Assembly: GCA_000697335.1 (NCBI GenBank)
Contig: JNEM01007401.1
Location: 1-57,407, forward strand
Origin: Conidiobolus incongruus B7586
Taxonomy: Eukaryota
Reading direction: 5' to 3'
DNA length: 57,407 nucleotides
This document shows positions 2,903 to 53,632 of the stretch, piece by piece. A program made the position numbers and the translations under genes. The notes under the pieces were generated by a model. The model was given only the letters and a program-made list of their open reading frames with translations. It was not told where the DNA came from and searched no databases. How positions within the stretch are numbered: the stretch's first letter is position 1; each line of letters opens with the position of its first letter.

Positions 2903-3146
2903 AGTAATGGTTTGAATCAGATAATGTAAAAAAGAGGATAAAATGAAAATTATTCGGCCAACCAAATGTAAATATTATCTTTTCTTGAAATAGATAATTA
3001 CTTAAAATTTATTTGTTTCAAATCGTTACAACGCTAGAGGATAGACTGTGATAATACTTTTGGTAATTACATTCATGGAAAAAAGTATTATAAATTAACA
3101 TATTCGAAAAGTTCATGTAATCTCAAATCATTTATTCTTTATCAAT

Positions 3147-4598
3147 ATGTTAAATATATTATTATTTGTATTATCTTTGACTGAAATTGGCTTTGTCCAG
3201 TCAAAAACCATAATTTCTCCAACCAAGCAAATTGACATCATTCAGCCAGATAATCCTCAATATGAGCAATCTAAATTCTTTTGGAATAGTAGATTTAAGC
3301 CTGTTAAACCTTTTGGCTTTGTTTATCCAAAATGCTCTGAAGATGTGTCTAATGCTATCAAGTTTGCAAACCAAAAGAATCTCCCAATTGCTATTCGCTC
3401 AGGTGGCCACTCTCACGAAGGTTACAATCAAGGTGGCAATGATGGATATTTGGTGATTGATCTCGAAAATTTGAATAATGTTACCATTGATCCTCAAACT
3501 CAAATTGCTCAAATTGGTGGTGGTTCGAGATTGGGACGTGTCTATGGATCGCTCTGGAAAAGTGGTAACTATTCCATTCCTGCTGGATTATGTCCAACTG
3601 TTGGGATTGGAGGTCACGCTACTGGTGGTGGAATTGGTCTTTATTCTCGTGCTTATGGTATGGTTACTGATAACATCCGGGAAATGGAAGTGGTTACAGC
3701 AAATGGAGATATTGTAAAATGTAATAAAAATGAAAATCAAGACTTATTCTGGGCATTGAGAGGATCAGGAACTGGATCATTTGGCGTTGTTACCAAATTC
3801 CATATCAAAGCATTTCAAGTCAAGGACACTGTATTACGCTTTGATATACGGGTTCCTTTCACTGTTGAAACATTTCCCGATATCTTTTTGAAACTTCAAG
3901 ATTGGTTGGTGAAAGGAGCATCTGAAAAGATTGGTCTTATTATTGAGCTTTATCAAAACGATATTCGGGTTTTAGGTGTCATCTTAGGTGATTCAGTTGA
4001 AGAACAGGATAAATTAGCAAGAGGTATGCTTCAAGCTCTTCCTATTGATCAAAACACTTTCCCCTTCATTCGGATGCCATTCATCAATACAGTATTTGCA
4101 AATTCAGGAGATCCTAAAATCACAAAGGTCGAAGATCTAATCAATGTAAAAGGATGGAGTGAACAAACGTACTTTAAAGTACGCGGAGGGTATATTGATA
4201 AACCACTTACCAGAGAATTCCTTCAAGAATATGGGTATTATTTGAAGAAATGGCCTCAAAATACTTATACACAACTTCATGTAGAAGGAGGAGTTATAGA
4301 TCGTCCAGAACTCTTGAAAGAAACATCCGTGCCTTATCGTAATACACTTTTCAATTCTCAACTTATAGGATTTGCCAAAACCAATGAGGAGGGAAGTAGA
4401 ATAGAGAGAGCTTTGGACGAAGCATACAATCTTCTGTTACCAAACTTTAATGGAAGTTATGTTAATTTTATGGATGCTAAAGTTGAAAACTGGCAGGTTA
4501 GCTATTATGGTAAAAATCTTGCCAAGTTATCTAAGATCAAGTGCAAGTGGGACCCATTGAACAGATTTAATAATCCTAGATCTGTTCCTTTACCTTAA
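3147..4598 (+). CDS. Secreted berberine-bridge-enzyme-like (AA7-type) FAD-linked oxidoreductase
   Basis: Hydrophobic N-terminal signal peptide, RSGGHS (His-FAD), AGLCPTVGIGGH (Cys-FAD) and a C-terminal BBE motif YVNF...YYGKN..KL..IK.KWDP.N.F. Intronless, 483 aa. Confidence 0.93.
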   Translation: MLNILLFVLSLTEIGFVQSKTIISPTKQIDIIQPDNPQYEQSKFFWNSRFKPVKPFGFVYPKCSEDVSNAIKFANQKNLPIAIRSGGHSHEGYNQGGNDGYLVIDLENLNNVTIDPQTQIAQIGGGSRLGRVYGSLWKSGNYSIPAGLCPTVGIGGHATGGGIGLYSRAYGMVTDNIREMEVVTANGDIVKCNKNENQDLFWALRGSGTGSFGVVTKFHIKAFQVKDTVLRFDIRVPFTVETFPDIFLKLQDWLVKGASEKIGLIIELYQNDIRVLGVILGDSVEEQDKLARGMLQALPIDQNTFPFIRMPFINTVFANSGDPKITKVEDLINVKGWSEQTYFKVRGGYIDKPLTREFLQEYGYYLKKWPQNTYTQLHVEGGVIDRPELLKETSVPYRNTLFNSQLIGFAKTNEEGSRIERALDEAYNLLLPNFNGSYVNFMDAKVENWQVSYYGKNLAKLSKIKCKWDPLNRFNNPRSVPLP

Positions 4599-8506: not shown

Positions 8507-8816
8507 GTTATTATCGATCTAATTTAATTGTTGTAATATTATTTGATACACTAACTATTTATTAATTTATCAATTTTAAAATTGAGAAAACAGCAAATTA
8601 CTATAAACTACTTCAATAAATCTAGCTTTTATTCTTACTTTTATTTAATCTTTACTATTTATAAAATATTATTAGGTAAAATAACTTTATTATTTATCAT
8701 GTTAACACTGAAATTTTATACAATTTATCAATTTTTAGTTAAGGATTTCACATTCAAACAAAACTTCAAAGGAATAATAACAGAAATTTCCAAGGAGTTA
8801 AAGTTTATATAATATA

Positions 8817-11489
8817 ATGGAAAATAAGAATGAAGGCTCAATAGTGCCTCCACCGAATCCTCAGCCTAAAAAAAGAGCTACATTTGATATCGATCGAATT
8901 CATCCGGACGATGCTAAAGATAAAGTATTTATTGGAATTATCAAAGCTTTAATAAAAATGGATAACAAGCCTTCTTCGCCAAAGGAATTGGCAGGGTTTA
9001 TTATAAAACACAAGTTGGCGGTTTTAGGTGGAGCGACCCCTTATGCTACAGTTTCTTCAAGAATTTCACAACATTTTAAAAGAGCTATCGAGCATAAACC
9101 ACCGAGAAAGCCCTTATTAGCGAAAAGCTTTGATGCAAAACATACTAGAAAAATTAGGTATTGCTTGGATTTGAATGAAGGTAACGAAAATGATTCAGAG
9201 GGATCTCACCCCAGCCCTACAAATAAATTACAGGATAGTATATCAAGTCTATTAAATACCAAGCCAAATTCTGCCTCATCCAGCTCAAACTCGATCAGAT
9301 CAAAGTCTGTTAATAGGGATTCTAGTCCATTTGAAGACTCTAGTTTGGATGTTATTGATGTGGAGTCAGAAGATGAAGACGTGGATGTTTCATCGACGAA
9401 AGAGGACTCTATTGAGAAAAAAGCCCCCATCATTGCTAAGAGTATAGTTAAAAGTAATGATCAACCACCGCCGCCAAAAAAGAGCAAACCTCCTTCTCCC
9501 AAACAACCTTCAATTCCTACTCCACCACCTGTCAAACCACAATCCAAACCTGCTGAACCAAATCCAATACGTACACCTCTTAGCACAAATAATCCCTTTG
9601 TATATAATTTCCTTAATAGTCAAAAGCTCAAAGTTTCGAGTAATTCAAAATCGACACTTAAATTCAGCTCACCGTATAAATCTAAGCCGACCTCACCCAA
9701 GCCATATGTTGCGTCAGCTTCATTGATTAATTCTGTTAATGGATTTAATGGTGTAGTGATTGAACCAACTCCAAGTCCAACACCTCCTGTGAAATTAGAG
9801 TCGATCAAATCTCCTAGAATACCCCGTCCTCCTCAACCAGCAATTCCTACCAGTGTAAATCCTCCCGCCACTGAAGATGCAAAAAAAGCACTTTCACCTC
9901 CTACCGCTTTGTCGCCCTATATAAATTTAAAACCTCCAGCATCGTTGAACAACTTTCTCCAAGATACGCTTTCCCCTCGCACTTCCGCTTTATTTGATCA
10001 TGATTTGAGAACAATACCTGATATTTCGTTCAAGATGGGTGCTACAAATACTCAATCAGCTACAACCACTCAGGGAACTAGCTCATTCCTTCTGCCTCAG
10101 CTTAAGGACCCAGTAAAAGTACCCACTTCTGAGCTTGATCAGTTATTTGAAACAAACTCTCTACCACAACCGCCATCAAATTCTTTAAATGGATTTGGCA
10201 ACAAGCATGTCTCATCTCGACCACCTCATCCCTTACGAAAAGATACAACCGCTACTTCTCCAGCTAAATCCAATCTTAAAACTATCACTAATTCTCTAAC
10301 CTCAACTTCGAAATCTCCTTTATTTTCTGCAATTGCTGGATCCAAAAAACCTTTGAATTCTACTGAGTTAGATGCATCACAAGCACTACTTCATCTTCCT
10401 ATATCACCTCAATTTAATGCATTTGACTCATCTTCCAATCCAAAACCTCCTTCCAATACACCAGATCGAAAATCGAGCCCCCCGCCATATTTCAGCATTG
10501 ATGATTTTTTGGCATCTCCCAGTCTAACTGGCTTTAAAGGAATGATGGATGTTGATCATAGTCATCTCTTGCCTGTGCCTACAGGACAAGATAATAATCA
10601 AACTAGTCCCATTATTCCTGGTGAAAGTTGGAGCAGTTTTGGAATTTATGTCACCCTTGCCGATAATCTACCAATTTTTGCTGCTAGATTTACCAGGTCG
10701 CCACGTCCCACTAATGGCAAGACTGAAGATAATATTCTTGCTGAATCTAATTCTTCAAATAACTCTAATTACGTTCTACTTACCAGATGGATCGATTCCG
10801 ATTATGTCAACGCAACAACATTATTAGAAGCAGGTGGTGTTACAACGAAGGAAGAGCAGAGTATTATTTTGAGTTTGGAACAGAGCTGTATTCAAATCAA
10901 CAAAACTGAATCTCCTTTACATGGTACCTGGATCCCCTTGCACCGAGCTCGTGCTCTTGCGATGACCTGCAATTTGAATCAGAAATTGGGTGCGTTTTTA
11001 GATCAAGATTTAGATAAACTTTTTCCCAAACCACTACCGCTAGACCCTACAAAACTCCCAGCCAGCTGTATTCCTTCATTAATCTTGAAAGGATGCTTAG
11101 ACGCCACCAAATGTCCAAAAATTCCCTATCACTACTCAGCTCATCTTAGATTCCGTCCAATTCCTCTTGTTCAACTTCCCCCTAACATTCTAGAGCAAGA
11201 GATGCTCATAGTCAACAATCGAGATCGAGAAGTTGGAGGTGTTGGCATATCACAGCCTATGTTTGACACAGTGAGCAGTGTCGAATCACTCAATCCCAGG
11301 AAATTTGGGCTTGAAAATAAGAAAGAACTTAATTTGTCCCTTTCAGCACCCCAATCTACATTTTTAACATCTAATAAGCCAGCTCCCAAAGTTAAGACTG
11401 AATATATTGAAGATGACGAAGAAATCAATATTGATGAAGATGAAGATGTTGATATTGGTGGTAGTGATATGGAAGATGATCTTAGATAA
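8817..11489 (+). CDS. Putative transcription or chromatin factor: N-terminal Gds1-like winged helix plus C-terminal KilA-N/APSES domain
   Basis: N-terminal DKVFIGIIKAL..MDNKPSSPKEL...LGGATPYATVSSRISQHF. C-terminal RWIDSDYVNATTLLEAGG...LHGTWIPLHRARALA. Long P/S-rich linker and acidic tail. Intronless, 890 aa. Confidence 0.8.
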   Translation: MENKNEGSIVPPPNPQPKKRATFDIDRIHPDDAKDKVFIGIIKALIKMDNKPSSPKELAGFIIKHKLAVLGGATPYATVSSRISQHFKRAIEHKPPRKPLLAKSFDAKHTRKIRYCLDLNEGNENDSEGSHPSPTNKLQDSISSLLNTKPNSASSSSNSIRSKSVNRDSSPFEDSSLDVIDVESEDEDVDVSSTKEDSIEKKAPIIAKSIVKSNDQPPPPKKSKPPSPKQPSIPTPPPVKPQSKPAEPNPIRTPLSTNNPFVYNFLNSQKLKVSSNSKSTLKFSSPYKSKPTSPKPYVASASLINSVNGFNGVVIEPTPSPTPPVKLESIKSPRIPRPPQPAIPTSVNPPATEDAKKALSPPTALSPYINLKPPASLNNFLQDTLSPRTSALFDHDLRTIPDISFKMGATNTQSATTTQGTSSFLLPQLKDPVKVPTSELDQLFETNSLPQPPSNSLNGFGNKHVSSRPPHPLRKDTTATSPAKSNLKTITNSLTSTSKSPLFSAIAGSKKPLNSTELDASQALLHLPISPQFNAFDSSSNPKPPSNTPDRKSSPPPYFSIDDFLASPSLTGFKGMMDVDHSHLLPVPTGQDNNQTSPIIPGESWSSFGIYVTLADNLPIFAARFTRSPRPTNGKTEDNILAESNSSNNSNYVLLTRWIDSDYVNATTLLEAGGVTTKEEQSIILSLEQSCIQINKTESPLHGTWIPLHRARALAMTCNLNQKLGAFLDQDLDKLFPKPLPLDPTKLPASCIPSLILKGCLDATKCPKIPYHYSAHLRFRPIPLVQLPPNILEQEMLIVNNRDREVGGVGISQPMFDTVSSVESLNPRKFGLENKKELNLSLSAPQSTFLTSNKPAPKVKTEYIEDDEEINIDEDEDVDIGGSDMEDDLR

Positions 11490-12037: not shown

Positions 12038-14151
12038 ATGTACTCTGATAATATTTCAACTGGCAATCGTGGAAGAGGTCGTGGAAGAGGTGGCTTCCAT
12101 TATGGAGGTAGTGGTCGTTCTTCCAGTGGTTTTGATGAAAGTCGTCTAGGTCCCTTAAACGATTATGACGGAAGTTCCAAAAACCCTAGAAATAACAATA
12201 ATTTGAATTGGAATTCCAATAATATTGATAACTCTAGAGGCCCAAGAAATAATAGAAATACTAATTTTAATAACAGGTACTTTTAATTTAACTAATTACT
12301 AATTTTCTAATTTTTATCATTTACTCAATTAATTCATAATTTTCAAGTAATCAAGGAAATACTCAAAATTTGCCGCCTAATCCAGCTGTCATTGAGGTAA
12401 AATTCTGAAATTCACTCTTAATATTTTTTTATTTAACTTTTAGGTGTAGATCCTCAATTATATTGGCAATAATGAAAATGCTTTAGCCGACTTTTTGAAA
12501 AAGAGAGCTAGTACGAGAGTTGAAATTTTATCTATTCGCGCAACTGAGAATGGCCGCATTCAGATGTTGATTTCAAATCTTACTCAAGCTAGAGCTCTCA
12601 GCCAATTGTCAAATACTAATTTTTCAGGCAGAAATCTAACTATTCAACTCATGCCCAAACACGTCGCCGATAAATGGACTCAAGAGTACGACTCTGGCAC
12701 ACCTAATGTTTCTGTAGAAGCTTGGATCAAGGTTATGACACCTCGATATAATCCCAATGCCCGACTACTCGATTTGAGTAAAATAGAATCCGAGCCTCTA
12801 GTGATCCAACACAATTTACTTGGTGGACGCCCGTTCAACAAACAAATTTGTACCGTTTTAATACGTATCATCTCTCAACAATTCCCTGATATCGTATCTA
12901 TTAGCTTTGATAATAACTATATCGAAAGATTGAGTGATTTCTCGGCAATGAACCAATTCTTACCTAATATCCAAAACTTATCCTTTAGAAATAATCGCTT
13001 AATGACAATGAAAGATCTTGAAGGACTGTGTTCTCCAGGCGAATTGCCTCAGCTCACAGAGTTACTTTTATTTGATAATCCAGTTAGAGATGCAAGTATT
13101 AAGCGAGATGGTGATGATTCTACCTTTAGAGCTAACGTTTCAGCTATGTACCCTCAACTCAAACAATTAGATGGAGGTCCTTGTACTCCTTCTATCCAGT
13201 TTGGCCTATCGATGGCTGGAAGTGCTGCTTCCAAAGACGACTTCACTCCTCAAATATTGCCCAGTTTTTATGGTTCCGACATTGCTATGAATACTGCCGC
13301 AAATTTCCTGAATAAATTTTTCGTCTGTTACGATAGCAACAGAAATGCACTTGGTAATGTATATGATCCCAGTGCCTTTTTCTCAATAGATATGTCTACT
13401 CATCTTTTCAAACCTCCTAAATTCACAAACCATAAAGTAAGATGGAGTGACTATCGAACTTTCAACAGGAACCATACCCAAACTGAAGTCTCTACCAGCC
13501 CATCTCAAAGATTAGCCTTTGGTAACCAAATGATTGTTGACTTGCTCTCTAAACTTCCTTCCACCACTCATCAAATCAGTGACCCTTCTAAAGTTGTCGT
13601 TGACTCTTGGATGTTACCAGATCTTTATCCACTTGGTGCTGCTCCTGGAACTCCTCAGGGTCAATATTTATTTGTTGTTGTACATGGTGAATTTACTGAT
13701 TCAGCCTCAAACAACCTCTCCAGATCTTTCGATCGTACTTTCATACTAAAGCCCGCTCCCGAGAGTTCACCAGCTGCTATGGAAGGCTGGCAAGTGATGA
13801 TTATGAGTGATACTTTGACTTTGAGATCCTACTCAAACCCCAAAAACTTCGCTCCAACCCCTCCTCCTTCAACTTCTGTCCAATCTTCAATCAATTCTCC
13901 TGCAGTTACTCCAGGTTTACCTCAACCCACACCCGAACAACAAAACATGCTCAACGCATTACATCAAAAGACAGGATTAAATTACGAATATTCGTACAAA
14001 TGTCTCAGTGGTAACAATTGGAACCTTGAACAAGCTTACCAAAACTTTTTACAATTACAGGTATATTGAATCATCTATTTCCAATAACTAAAGCTCATCT
14101 ATTTTATTTTAGGGTAATAATCAAATTCCACCCGAAGCTTTTAACAAATAA
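12038..14151 (+). CDS. MEX67: mRNA export factor Mex67/NXF1 (exons 12038-12276, 12348-12396, 12450-14060, 14113-14151)
   Basis: RG-rich N-terminus, LRR (LDLS, LSFRNNRL, LFDNP), NTF2-like domain (VVHGEF, RSFDRTFIL) and TAP-C/UBA (KTGLN..YS.KCL..NNW). The spliced last exon gives the canonical IPPEAF. GT-AG introns keep frame. Confidence 0.93.
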
Positions 14152-14564
14152 ATTTAAAATACTGGACATAAAAATTTATTCTATTATCGAGTTTTAATAG
14201 AAAATTGTGAATTAATAAAAACCATTCAATGAATCATTTTGGGTCAATAATCTCCAGATTTAATAAAATTTATTATTTATAAATTTTTAAATGTATTATT
14301 TTTGTCATAGAATATTTAATCAAAATAGGTTTATATCTAGAATAAAAATTTCCATCAGTTAATTTTTTAAATTAATCATTTTATAAAAATGAGCTTTTAT
14401 ATATTTGATTAGAATTTAAGAGTTATAATTAAAGTTGTTACATAAACTTATATTTTAATTCTTAATGATTGTATCAATATTTTTTGATATCCTTTTAGTG
14501 TTTAAATTAATTAATGAAACATTTTATTAAATGAATTAAATATGGTTTTATTGTTATTTATCTA

Positions 14565-14596
14565 TTAGTATAGAAATTAAGAAATGGTAAATTTTT
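14565..14596 (+). repeat. Left terminal inverted repeat of the mariner
   Basis: TTAGTATAGAAATTAAGAAATGGTAAATTTTT, preceded by TA. Confidence 0.88.
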
Positions 14597-14754
14597 TAAT
14601 TTCTGATCTTTCAAACATATTATACATTTTGAAAGATTATATATATATAAAATATATAGGAAAATAAATATTTTCAAACTATATATATATATTCAATTTT
14701 AATTATTTTTTTATTAAAATATTTTGATTTTAAAATTTACACTTAAATTTAATT

Positions 14755-15790
14755 ATGTTTAAATTAGATTATAATTATCAAAAGATTTTTATTTTTGTAT
14801 TTTTAAAACTTAACTATAAACCTTTTAAAATCATTTAAAACTTATAAACAACTTATAAAGATAGTGTTTTATCTAAAACTATTATATATTGCTAGATTTA
14901 TGATTTTAAAGCTAGAAAAGACACTATTTAAAATTTACTAAAATTTAAAAGATTAATTTCTACTGTTATTTTTTTACTTATTAATAAAGTAAAAAAATAT
15001 ATTAAGAAATATCTTTTTATTTTTGTTAAAGAATTATTAAAGTAATTTAATGTTAATTATACAAACATATTATATTTACTTAAGTTTAAACTTAAATTAA
15101 TTAATAAAAATATAAAATAGATACCTTATAATTTAATAAAAGCTTAAAAGAAAATTAAAATAGCTATAGCTAAATTAAATTTATTAAAGTATAACTAAAA
15201 ACAAAGGTTTTTACAGTAAATACTTACAATTAATAAATTTTAAATTCTTTTATATAATCCTTTACTTAAAAATAAAACAAAATGTTAGGTTAAGTTAAAT
15301 TAATCCCCTTTATAAATTCTAATGAATAAACACTTTAAATATAAACAAATGTTAATTATTATAATAAATTATAATAGTATATAGTTTTTTTATTTAATAC
15401 TTTAAAGAAAATTAATTAATAGTAAATTATATATTATTTTTTTAAATAAAATAATTTTTAAATAGTATTTTTAATATAAATTAAAGACACTTATTATTTT
15501 ATATAATAATTATAAAATACATAAAGTTAAAGTTGTAAAAGTTTTTTTATATAAAAAAAATTAAAAGGAGTTATTATATCTAGTATATTTACTTGATTAT
15601 AACTTATGTGATTATAATTGTTTTAGAGAATTAAAAAAACAGCTTATAGGGAAAAAAATTCTTGTAAACAAATTAAATTGGTTTGTGAAACATTAAATTT
15701 TAGTTTTTAATAAAAAGAACTGTTTTTTAAGTATTAGAAATTTATTAAAGGTATAGAAAAGAGTTATTAATAATAAAAAAGCTATTAATT
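14755..15790 (+). pseudogene. Mariner transposase pseudogene
   Basis: Single frame from ATG 14755. YKDSVLS..IYC*..FKARK...NLLKFKRL matches YGD..LS..VY.W..FK.GR..D.PRSGRP. K*IPYNL matches WVPHEL. TINKF* matches T.DE.W (D1 15232). ILYNN..IH matches LHDN..H (D2 15505). LLYLVYLLDYNLCDY matches LPHP.YSPD..PCDY (D3 15610, 34 residues after D2). SIRNLLKV*KRVI matches GI..LP.RW.KV. Confidence 0.92.
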
Positions 15791-15850
15791 TTATATTATT
15801 CATTAATTTTTATATATTATTTATTAATTTATTTGTTTAATTTTAATTTT

Positions 15851-15882
15851 AAAATTGTACCATTACTTAATTTCTACACTAA
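15851..15882 (-). repeat. Right terminal inverted repeat of the mariner
   Basis: Reverse complement is TTAGTGTAGAAATTAAGTAATGGTACAATTTT; TA follows on the + strand. Confidence 0.88.
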
Positions 15883-17234
15883 TATTAAAGTAATATATAA
15901 ATTATATTAAAAATATAATAATTAATTATTGAATATCATTTATTAATACTAATACTGATATTTGATATATTGACAATAAAAACTAATACAAGAAAATTTT
16001 GTAAGAGTTTCTTTTAAATATGTATTAATAATATAATCAACATATCAGATTATATTACTAGCTTTGAGTATTATTTTAGAGATAAAGTTAAAAAAGTTAA
16101 TGTATAATCTCATATATTAATTTATTTTTGAAAAGTATTTCTATTTTGAGATTGAAATTATTATTAAATTTAGGCAGTATTCAAATGATTTATAATTACC
16201 ACTCATGTTTTTTAAAATAACTCATCATAAGACTAATTATATATGAATATTTATCACTCATTTAAGTATTTATTTCATTTTTTCAGGAATAATTTTCAAA
16301 TTTATCATAAATTAGAAAATTATATTTAAATATAAAATGTATAATAAAATTAAAATATAAGTAATTGAATCTAATTTATGACTGTTTAATAGAATATTAA
16401 GAATATTTATTTTTAACGAAATTATATATATATAATTGGAGAATATAAAAGTAAAATAATTTTGGTTAAATATTTGCCTAAATAATAAATAGTATTAGCT
16501 GATTGAATCTCTTTTTTGTATTTATCAAATGCAAAATAAACATACTTTGATAAAGAATATAATATAATATAATGTATTATAAAGTTAAAATAGTATATTA
16601 AAAATAAAATAATGGATATATTTTAAATTCTAATCATTTTTGAACTTGAATCAATAATAATTCATGATGACATAAGCAACTTGACTTTATAGTATATAAT
16701 GACTTTGATACTATTGGATAAATTAAAATCAAAACAATGGATATGATGTGGAAAATATATCTTATTATATAATTACTGAATCATATCCGCTCAAATATCC
16801 TAATATCCAAACAGAGTATGCTTAATTTATGAACTAATAACATTGGTTTTGAGTGTATTATACTCAAACACAATATATTCAAACTATCCATTACATTGGA
16901 TTTTCCTAGAAATATTAAATCATTGTAATTTTTGATAAATCAATATGGATAGGGGCAAATATTTTAATTAAAGAACTAGTTGTTGATTGATTTAGCTTAA
17001 GTTGATTGGATGCTGGAGAGGTGTACGCAAAATTCACAATTTAACCCAATTGAATTGCCCAATCAAAAAATATTACCAATTATTTGATAGATTGGTTAAT
17101 TCAATAAAATCTGATCAAATATTATTTTAATGAGAAAGAATTAGGATCAACAAACAACTCTTTATTACTTTGTCATTTTAAGAGCAAATAAACTTCATTT
17201 ATCAAGTATTTCTCTTTGTGTCTTATTGTTTAAT

Positions 17235-19230
17235 ATGCTTAGTAAAAAGACAAATACTCCTCAGGTATGTATATTCTGTTACAATCTTCATTTCTCTTCC
17301 GATTAAATCATTTTGATCTTTGGCTGTTCTGAATTTTTTATTTCAATTTTTTTGTTCTGTGTCAAAATCCAATCCTATTATATCTTGAATATTGTATTTT
17401 TAAAGAGATTATCTTTGTGGTTTTCAACTTTGCTTATTTTACGATTTCTTTAACTAGATCAAATCTGAAGTGGAGTTCAACGCTTATTTTAAAGAAGTCA
17501 AGCAAGAATTTTCCGAGGCAGAATCCGAGCATAATTGGAGTAAGTTTGCTAAAAGATTTGAAGAATTATCTCAAATCTGCCCCAGTTGTCACAATTATCC
17601 TTCTTTTTTGGAAGGTATTCGTAAAGTCAGGGATTGCTTAAGTAATAGTTTACTTACTGAACGCACTACTCTCTCACTTAAGACTATGGATTTCGTTGCC
17701 ACTTTAGCTAAAGTTACTCAGAAAAATTTCGCCCCTTATTTGGAGCTCGTTATGAGTCCTTTATTAAAAATCACTGGTAAAACTAATAAGGTTTTTGTAC
17801 GTAAGGCAGTTACCACTCTCAAAGCTATTATTACTGATACTAAGTTACCCGCCATCCTCCCATACATTGCCACTAATTTTTCCAGTAAAAGCAAGCAGCA
17901 ACGTATTTATGCCAGTGAGCTTTTGCTCAGTTGTATGAATTCAATCTCATCTAAAGATCTTGAAGTTCATTTAAATATTATTGTCAACAGTATTAAAAAT
18001 GGCGTCATTGATGCTGATCCAGAGGTTAGAACTACATGCAAAAATGTATTCGAGAAATTCAAAAAGATTTATCCTGAATCTACACAAGACCTTATCAGTG
18101 TCTTATGTGATACTGCCAAGAAGAATCTCAAAATTAATGGTGGTGCTACTTCATCAATCTCTACATTGAGCAGATCTAAGTCATCGATTTTTCCTAAAGC
18201 TAATCCAAGATCTACTCTCAGTGGCGCATCTAAGCCAATAACTCAATCTGCTAATGGTGCCAGACCAACCCAATCCAAAGTATCTCAACCTACTACTACT
18301 ACTACTACTACTACTGTTAAGCCAAGACCTATAGCCAATCCTGTTTCGAGACTCGCTGCTCGTTCTCTATCTGGAAATTCTAGAATCAGTCCCAACACTG
18401 TTGCTAGAAAACCGCCCACCATTCCTAACCGCACCAATGTAATCACTTCCTCTCGTACGGCTATCAGTCCCACCAGATCATCGGTCAAAAGACCTTCTGT
18501 GCCTAGTCACAGTTCATCAATTAATCAAGCTTCTAAACTTGTTAGATCCAATAACTCAACTGCTATTCCTACCAAGACCAATAGCTCTGGATCCACTACT
18601 GCATCTATTCTTGCCAAATCTCGCTCTGTTTTGAGCACTGCTCGATCATCTATTAGTAAACCACCCACAACTTCTGCTATTTCATCAACTAATCAGTCAT
18701 CCAAGCTTGTCAGATCCAACAATTTATCTGCTGTTCCTGTCAGCACCATTACCCCCACCTCGACCACTTCCGTTGAGCCTAAACCAATTAAAAATTATTT
18801 CAAATATGATAGAGCTCACGAGGTAATGGCACAATCCGGCGCTGAAATTGTTAAATCCAGCACCTCTCTTTCACAATCTTCTGTTACTAAGAAGCCTAAG
18901 CCTGAGTCAGCTGTCACTTACACTCCTATTGAGAAGCCAATAGCAAATGCTTCAGAACCTTCCAAATCCGCTGTTTCTACTTTCTCTTCTACTACCTCGA
19001 TACCCACTGATAGTGCATCTCAACCCTTTTCCAGAACCCCTAGAAATTCATTCCCTGGTGACTTTGATATGCCACCTTATTCTATAATTAACACCCTTTC
19101 CCCCAGAATGAGTGAGAGTAGTACCCCATCATCACCACATAATAAGCGCGTTATTGACTTATCTAGTGTTCAAGATGCCAAAATTAGTGATGGCAGCTTG
19201 TCCACAAATCCAAACAGAACATCCGCATAG
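17235..19230 (+). CDS. CLASP/Stu1-like protein (one TOG/CLASP_N HEAT domain plus S/T/R-rich tail); exons 17235-17264, 17458-19230
   Basis: ESEHNW, SLLTERTTLS, LLKITGKTNKVF and GVIDADPEVR are typical of CLASP_N. The short ATG exon (MLSKKTNTPQ|gtatgt ... ctag|) splices in frame. Confidence 0.82.
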
Positions 19231-37949: not shown

Positions 37950-38021
37950 AGCAGCGTAGCGCAGAGGAAGCGCGCGGGGCTCATAACCCCGAGGTCGGAG
38001 GATCGAAACCTCTCGCTGCTA
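37950..38021 (+). tRNA. Initiator tRNA-Met (CAT)
   Basis: Cloverleaf with AGCAGCG...CGCTGCT-A (A1:U72), G-C-rich anticodon stem around CTCATAA and T-loop GATCGAAA (A54). A T-run follows. Confidence 0.97.
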
Positions 38022-42572: not shown

Positions 42573-42644
42573 AACAGCATAGCGCAGTGGAAGCGCGCGG
42601 GACTCATAACCCCGAGGTCGGTGGATTGAAATTTCTTGCTACTA
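42573..42644 (+). pseudogene. Mutated initiator tRNA-Met copy
   Basis: Ungapped alignment to 37950-38021 with 10 substitutions, affecting the acceptor, anticodon and T stems and C56 of the B box. Confidence 0.92.
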
Positions 42645-52601: not shown

Positions 52602-52673
52602 TAGCAGCGAGAGGTTTCGATCCTCCGACCTCGGGGTTATGAGCCCCGCGCGCTTCCTCTGCGCTACGCTGCT
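52602..52673 (-). tRNA. Initiator tRNA-Met (CAT), identical to 37950-38021
   Basis: Exact reverse complement of the first copy, followed by a T5 terminator on the minus strand. Confidence 0.97.
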
Positions 52674-53454
52674 GTACTAACAATTAAAATTTTGTGTAAT
52701 TGTTACGATTTTTCGATTTTAAGTCATTCTGTTAATTACTTATCTGTTCTATGCTCAATATTTTGCCATCACATTTTTATTATTTCATATTAAATTAAAT
52801 TCAATAATTTATCATCATCTTTGTATATTTATTTGTATTCAGATTCACAATTATTATATAAATCGCTTCAATTATTTTCGAACTAAACCATTTTCAAATT
52901 TGAATTCAATATAATCTATTTAAATTTTAACATCTTATTCTCATAATCAATTATGAATATTTTTCAAGGAATATGATGCATTGAACTTTAATAATAATGA
53001 GAAAACAGGCTAATAGAGTATAAGAGATGTTTATTAAAACATATTTTAAAGCTTCATTTATTATTTTTGTATAATCTTTATAAAAAATAACCCAATATTT
53101 CAAAATTATATAATATTATAATTATAAAATGATAATATCAATTTAACAGCTTTTGTTTTATTACAAAATATTATTTTTATATATAAAAAGGAGATGATAT
53201 AATTTACTTGAGCTATTTTGATCTTTTTGTCATACTTTTATTTTATATTTTATTGTTATATAATTTTCAAGTAGTACCTTAATTGATATTTAAGTGTTTA
53301 ACAGTTATAAAACATATTGAAATATTATATAGTGAAATTCATAAAGTCTACAAAATTTTGAAAGTTAAAATATGTATATATATATATTATGATAAAATAG
53401 AAAATAAAAATATTCAAATTATAAATTAATTTAATAAAATGATATTATATATTT

Positions 53455-53547
53455 AAATTTATTATTTAATGATAAAAATATATTCAAATTTATTATTTAA
53501 TGATAAAAATATATTCAAATTTATTATTTAATGATAAAAATATATTC
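53455..53547. repeat. Three perfect tandem copies of a 31-bp unit
   Basis: AAATTTATTATTTAATGATAAAAATATATTC x3. Confidence 0.93.
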
Positions 53548-53561
53548 ACTAATTTCTCGGA

Positions 53562-53632
53562 TGCAATGGCGGGGAATCGAACCCCGGTCTACCGCGTGGC
53601 AGGCGGTAATTATACCACTAAACCACCATTGC
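53562..53632 (-). tRNA. tRNA-Gly (GCC)
   Basis: GCAATGG...CCATTGC-A acceptor stem, D-loop TAGTGGTA, anticodon loop CTGCCAC and T-loop GTTCGATTC. Confidence 0.96.

Follow-up and report, generated by a model that had tools for sequence, protein, structure and literature searches.

A mariner element of Conidiobolus with a heavy, nearly one-directional C>T/G>A load in all four CpN contexts

The stretch of DNA analysed here (the window, 57,407 nucleotides) contains at positions 14565-15882 a full-length mariner transposon of 1318 bp, with 12.7% GC and no CpG at all. Its boundaries, its transposase frame and the neighbouring genes are listed in Table 1. The element is intergenic since the short last exon of the Mex67/NXF1 gene stops about 410 bp upstream of it. 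Its empty site was not seen in metagenomes, where a Mex67 query gave 54 pattern matches of which none was confirmed as the orthologous locus. The affiliation of the host was judged from the glutaryl-CoA dehydrogenase (GCDH) encoded in the window, i.e., from the identity of one gene rather than from a tree. This protein shares 95% identity with that of Conidiobolus coronatus NRRL 28638, followed by one further match of 95% and then only by matches of 78% or less. Judged by this identity the host is a Conidiobolus, placed in the Entomophthorales and thus outside the Dikarya as the preliminary description had supposed, and an ascomycete host with ordinary RIP is rejected on the same matches. Elsewhere the window contains a single-exon gene for a protein of 890 aa with a GDS1 winged-helix domain and a weak KilA-N/APSES domain (8802-11489), and a tandem repeat of about 31 bp in three copies (53447-53548) that lies directly before a tRNA-Gly gene (53562-53632).

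Table 1. Coordinates of the parts of the mariner element and of its neighbouring genes in the window
Feature	Position	Strand	Remark
Left neighbour, Mex67/NXF1 mRNA export factor	12450..14152	+	Pfam NXF_NTF2, TAP_C
Left TA target-site duplication	14563..14564		sequence reading; 78 contigs of run X1 diverge at 14563
Left terminal inverted repeat, 25 nt	14565..14589	+
Mariner transposase frame	14755..15780	+	342 codons, 20 stops (14 TAA, 6 TAG)
A run with probable single-base deletion, then likely original gene end (Y, stop 15786-15788) in other frame	15775..15788	+	inferred
Right terminal inverted repeat, 25 nt	15858..15882	-	23/25 complementary to left terminal inverted repeat
Right TA target-site duplication	15883..15884		sequence reading
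Right neighbour, CLASP/Stu1-like gene	17458..19230	+	Pfam CLASP_N, E 2.9e-30

In its architecture the element resembles mariner (DD34D) transposons such as Mos1, which holds for the length of 1318 bp, the terminal inverted repeats, the TA duplication, a gene of about 345 codons, the DD34D spacing and motifs of the WVPHEL and YSPDL type. Both termini and the target-site duplication are preserved, as had been described, and the inverted-repeat pattern has two matches in the window versus 0.01 expected by chance, with no match in metagenome contigs and none in viral contigs. The transposase shows an HTH region, a decayed WVPHEL linker (codons 122-127) and a decayed YSPDL motif (codons 278-282). 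Its DD34D triad falls on codons 160, 251 and 286, the last two being separated by 34 residues; D160 and D251 now read AAT and only the third codon reads GAT. The changes at conserved W, H, D, E, P, S and G positions that had been noticed before were all found again: tryptophan codons 47, 122, 163 and 178 are TAG or TAA, E161 is AAA, P276 is CTA, P284 and S279 are TTA, G54 is AGA and G342 is AAA. Translated with X at the stops, the transposase matches that of Mos1 (E 1.6e-4), and a representative protein library yielded 143 matches, 14 of them at E ≤ 1e-10. Pfam Transposase_1 is present in all six of these 143 relatives that were scanned. The decayed protein itself is too mutated for such approaches: a Pfam scan gave no family and a word-seeded protein search found none among 3,799 candidates. 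A close intact relative was not found in the library either, as the compatibility of the best matches is limited to about half of the positions even if C>T/G>A changes are allowed.

The reading frame is co-linear over 342 codons with 39 relatives, hand-picked as full-length among the 143. To this extent the earlier statement of a transposase free of frameshifts stands; after codon 342 the A run 15775-15780 has probably lost a single base, because a mariner-like end (Y followed by a stop) lies in another frame and because other copies show an inserted base at 15774-15782 in a minority of the depth. None of the 20 internal stops counted from ATG 14755 is TGA, exactly as reported before. Taken alone this absence is only suggestive, since context-free C>T simulations gave 8 TGA among 55 stops; over all six frames of the element TAG occurs 31 times and TGA 7 times. 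The lack of CpG is likewise real and weak when taken alone, with 5.3 CpG expected from composition and the intergenic DNA of the host being CpG-poor. The CpG-free stretch covers 2 kb (14365-16364), extending 200 bp to the left and about 480 bp to the right of the element, which could be due to a spread of methylation out of the transposon, or else be a chance feature of AT-rich sequence.

The direction of change becomes apparent from the comparison with relatives. Against those 94 of the 143 library matches that have 300-480 aa, allowing C>T/G>A raises the mean compatibility from 21% to 44%, while two control rules that allow more residues reach 35% and 37%. With conservation in at least 70% of the 39 relatives as the threshold there are 44 columns, of which the element has kept 22; C>T/G>A alone would account for 17 of the others, and 5 call for some other change. 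For these 17 out of 22 changes the null expectations have means of 4.3 and 5.2 and maxima of 11 and 13 in 10,000 draws. The corresponding numbers are 9, 9 and 2 at a conservation level of 90%, and 42, 42 and 20 at 50%. Two of the five exceptions would also fit C>T/G>A if the ancestor had residues found in some relatives (C at 253, A at 277), and the four tryptophans conserved in at least 70% have all become stops (three TAG, one TAA).

The size of this load was estimated with a codon model in which ancestral codons are summed over by means of the profile of the relatives. Directional change is preferred over symmetric transitions by 257 lnL, and C>T is estimated to have affected about 0.66 of the cytosines (0.71 with uniform codon usage) along the whole gene and on both strands (C>T 0.68, G>A 0.64). 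Every other class of substitution was fitted at zero with approximate 95% bounds of <0.01 for reverse transitions, <0.03 for C>A and <0.02 for each of C>G, A>T and A>C. Thus the one-directional load claimed in the preliminary description is confirmed at about 66% of cytosines with the other classes under about 3%, and transversions are far from being as common as C>T. Three held-out relatives served for 12 simulations, in which the model recognised processes that were unmutated, flat, neutral with an AT bias, or CpG-led; a planted C>A of 0.2 was estimated as 0.18-0.20, and once CpT was falsely put at 0.20 where no mutation had been simulated.

All four CpN contexts are affected, so the earlier suggestion of a context broader than CpA was borne out. 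The estimates by 3' neighbour are approximate, as the ancestral neighbour is taken as context and the order of mutations is ignored: CpG 0.84 (approximate 95% range 0.69-0.94), CpA 0.78 (0.69-0.86), CpT 0.64 (0.53-0.75) and CpC 0.39 (0.24-0.55). A model with context exceeds a single rate by 15.8 lnL at 3 df. With an excess restricted to CpG a rate of 0.62 is left in the other contexts, and a model with CpG and CpA is better by 7.2 lnL. The cytosines retained in the element tell a similar story, with 32% in CpA and 59% in CpT versus 43-49% and 32-38% in seven non-coding stretches; tested against three intergenic stretches the shortage of CpA has P 2.6e-7. The composite RIP index, calculated in 1-kb windows over the 57 kb, is clearly positive only over the element (0.53 and 0.61, with 0.07 at its edge) and the flanks lack the C>T signature. 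Within this one window and with small controls the signature thus appears confined to the element, but a decayed tRNA copy described below likewise shows only transitions at C/G.

Further copies of the family were found in sequencing runs. Four runs of one sample contain the region; this sample, to which X1 and X4 belong, may be the source of the window and is not independent of it. In run X1, 13,752 contigs were mapped at 80% likeness onto 13700-15800 (left junction included), with a depth of mostly 18,000-96,000 within the element (8,700 in a single bin) versus 20-140 in the flank, and 78 contigs diverge from the reference at 14563 and continue in dissimilar flanks. The mariner family is hence a many-copy family with at least dozens of insertion sites, the depth not being equal to copy number. 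The mapping covered four out of seven runs; in X5 and X7, which carry the same species label and come from other samples, 1 and 0 contigs were mapped, which is no proof of absence. The flank shows two alleles of equal depth at 13979-14219 in runs X1 and X4, differing in 24 of 241 bases, and this suggests a strongly heterozygous, hybrid or duplicated genome.

Transitions account for 360 of the 450 variable places in run X1 (A>G 93, T>C 118, C>T 75, G>A 74), in totals that include allele differences of the flank and with a 1% floor that favours recurrent changes. Among the best 40 of 466 variable rows the element copy has T or A at 34 where the family majority has C or G (CpT 21, CpA 9, CpC 4), and at these 34 sites C or G is kept by 73-99% of the depth (median 85%). 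An excess limited to CpG or TpCpG is rejected by both lines of evidence, the 7.2 lnL gained with CpA in the codon model and the 30 of these 34 rows that are CpT or CpA. The remaining rows of the best 40 comprise three with G in the element copy where the majority has A and three transversions; at least four of the 40 are changes other than C>T/G>A that are private to the element copy (three transversions and one A>G). From the number of rows with a C/G majority the element copy seems to be far more mutated than the family average, as is suggested by rows that were selected for a majority of C or G. All nine indel rows are located in the 5' leader or at 15774-15782 and none in codons 1-339.

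Canonical RIP of Neurospora crassa and other Pezizomycotina shares with the element a dense C:G>T:A change on both strands of a repeat with frame and termini otherwise kept, TAA and TAG stops, a positive composite index confined to the repeat and CpA above CpT and CpC. The large excess on both strands, nearly without transversions or indels, is thus present as in canonical RIP, whereas its strong CpA preference is absent: CpA (0.78) exceeds CpT (0.64) and CpC (0.39) and not CpG (0.84), and the ranges of CpA and CpT overlap. The element further differs from canonical RIP in that the host belongs to the Entomophthorales, CpG is saturated like CpA, CpT and CpC are heavily affected and many copies seem to keep C or G where the element copy has lost it. 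We do not class the element as RIP because the CpA rule does not hold for it; timing, homology sensing and RID are putative here. In the accessible text of PMC5751038, RID/Masc1 is reported only from Pezizomycotina and Tc1/mariner transposons are recorded in Conidiobolus.

In Zymoseptoria tritici a mitotic C>T mutator depends on Dim2, with more than 98% of C>T at CpA and CpG spared (PMC8016269, as far as its available part goes). The likeness lies in C>T concentrated in transposons, which in Zymoseptoria is tied to a cytosine methyltransferase and proceeds without a sexual cycle; in the Conidiobolus element, in contrast, all four contexts are affected and the near restriction to CpA with CpG spared is absent (CpG 0.69-0.94, CpT 0.53-0.75). 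Pucciniomycotina show a TpCpG RIP-like hypermutation (PMC3318451), and the consulted portions of PMC3318451 and PMC4352252 present this pattern together with species-specific CpA, CpT and CpG signatures. Such TpCpG mutation and the decay of methylated CpG likewise leave transposon copies enriched in C>T changes and depleted of CpG, but in the element CpA (0.78) and CpT (0.64) lie far above background. Its context is broader than that of any described fungal pattern compared here.

For the Entomophthorales themselves, a composite-index survey gave 24.2% RIP for Zoophthora radicans, 2.4% for Entomophthora muscae and low values in relatives (PMC11105155). In the available sections the same paper describes observed RIP as confined to the Dikarya, attaches major caveats to its own index result and regards the methyltransferase candidates of the order as not interpretable as RID homologs; these sections contain neither a substitution spectrum nor a value for Conidiobolus. 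The fungal order and a positive composite index in part of the genome are common to both studies, the difference being that the survey used dinucleotide indices in 1-kb windows and the evidence for the element comes from alignment to intact transposases and from sister copies. Hence the idea of a RIP-like process in Entomophthorales is not wholly new and the alignment-level spectrum is the added part. No published substitution spectrum for Conidiobolus repeats was found in the literature searched, which leaves most subscription papers outside. According to the accessible part of PMC12543289, a kingdom-wide k-mer screen of 2025 that included C. coronatus NRRL 28638 detected RIP-like signatures only in ascomycetes, and this counts against a mutator in this host.

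Judged from the sequence evidence, we regard it as reasonably probable that the element was hit by a repeat-targeted mutator that is RIP-like in outcome, broad in context and presumably linked to a methyltransferase. A mariner would first have amplified to many copies, and the host would then have marked these copies on both strands, probably via a cytosine methyltransferase of the DIM-2/DNMT1 type or a relative. Marked cytosines would have turned into T far faster than by background mutation, probably over repeated rounds that may be sexual, which would be the timing of true RIP, or mitotic as with Dim2 in Zymoseptoria, so that copies would be affected unevenly with the element copy among the worst and its transposase destroyed. 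Such a mutator would accept all CpN contexts in the order CpG ~ CpA > CpT > CpC. A C>T load more than thirty times that of C>A, on both strands and in four contexts, with at most one indel, would be hard to get from age. A bolder form of this reading, which we consider tentative and doubtful, would be a RID-free repeat-induced mutator that evolved independently in Conidiobolus, recognises duplicated DNA, acts in discrete bursts on every CpN context and represents a true RIP analogue outside Dikarya, found moreover in a fungus that can be cultured. It is equally doubtful, as part of the same joint reading, that RID-free signatures of this kind are under-called by screens tuned to CpA.

The strongest rival, which we consider unlikely though serious, is passive decay: dense all-context methylation by a silencing methyltransferase followed by slow spontaneous deamination of 5mC, with no dedicated mutator. 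CpG has the highest point estimate (0.84) and has suffered no less than CpA, as would be expected if methylated cytosines are deaminated; this is a point against the mutator. The methylation itself has parallels, since 5mC is described to sit in repeats in Phycomyces and Linderina (PMC11258239) and DIM-2 is recorded as acting in every CpN context, with CpT preferred (PMC13297926), both in the available parts of these sources. Against passive decay stands that the contexts other than CpG are nearly as saturated as CpG. Methylated CpG shows roughly a tenfold excess of C>T, and the excess in the element lies beyond this, at more than thirtyfold over C>A and about sixtyfold or more over each class at A/T sites if calculated from the bounds. 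Moreover, copies seem to be unevenly affected (as seen from the retention of C or G at the 34 sites among the best 40 of 466 rows), yet the element copy carries few other changes.

Neutral decay under a strongly AT-biased spectrum of the whole genome, without any targeting of repeats, is very improbable. It would be in line with intergenic DNA of only 17-23% GC, but the element is still poorer in GC and has the different CpA/CpT balance mentioned above, and a simulated neutral AT-biased process was recovered as such, unlike the fit to the real element. Just upstream of an intact gene for a berberine-bridge-type FAD oxidase lies a broken second copy of its 5' end (2693-2898 and 3119-3325, 79% identical). 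As a control this piece is unpolarised, and selection may have acted on its divergence; it shows 23 transitions and 20 transversions with 27 of the 43 differences at A/T sites; transversions thus make up 20 of 43 differences there versus 3 of 40 in the element rows (best 40 of 466; P 6.6e-5). The frame, about 1 kb long, has no more than one indel, which speaks against neutral decay as well. An equal load in single-copy neutral DNA, which the preliminary description had named as a reason to abandon the idea of a mutator, was not found as far as such small, unpolarised stand-ins show.

A second transposon relic of IS630/Tc1-like type lies at about 650-1750 on the minus strand (DDE_3 weak, E 0.012) and no full-length relatives of it were found among 520 candidates. 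It carries frameshifts, has 42% CpA and 20 cytosines in CpG context and is without CpA depletion, which would count against the mutator. Between two identical intact copies of an initiator-type tRNA-Met gene (37950-38021, plus strand, and 52602-52673, minus strand) there is a decayed copy at 42573-42644 that was not called by ARAGORN. It differs from both in 10 positions, namely 8 C>T/G>A and 2 A>T with no C>A or C>G, so that all eight changes at C/G are transitions as neutral decay under an AT-biased spectrum would have it. Either small multicopy genes could also be affected or ordinary mutation here could be strongly biased to C>T, and this spectrum counts against a targeted mutator.

A cytidine deaminase of the AID/APOBEC type, acting instead of a methyltransferase on transposon DNA, for instance when single-stranded, is highly improbable even though pure C>T chemistry, a broad context and an uneven load among copies would fit bursts of such an enzyme. 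Both strands are affected about equally, there is no strong preference for a 5' neighbour at the 34 C>T/G>A rows among the best 40 of 466 (A 11, C 9, T 8, G 6), and mariners move by double-stranded cut and paste. The least credible explanation is a misassembly in which DNA of an ascomycete contaminant with ordinary RIP became attached to the Conidiobolus contig: the left-junction contig covers no more than 28 bases of the element at a depth of 9.9, below a 31-base bridging rule, but this contig (14192-14592) is without mismatch, exact TA duplications flank both ends, the family depth is hundreds of times the host-flank depth in the same run and the spectrum is unlike CpA-led classical RIP.

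RIP outside the Dikarya is currently disputed, with caveated index hints (PMC11105155) on the one side and an ascomycete-only screen (PMC12543289) on the other, as far as the available parts of both papers go. The element provides evidence at the substitution level for a near-pure C>T load in Conidiobolus that comprises non-CpG contexts together with CpG, and as it belongs to a many-copy family existing reads are enough to settle the question. If passive decay were true, it would suggest that cytosines are densely methylated in every context in a lineage whose known DNA methylation is mainly that of adenine. If an active mutator were true, repeat-directed mutation would be far older than Dikarya or would have arisen twice with different enzymes, and this would bear on the small genomes of Conidiobolus in comparison with those of sister Entomophthorales of more than 500 Mb.
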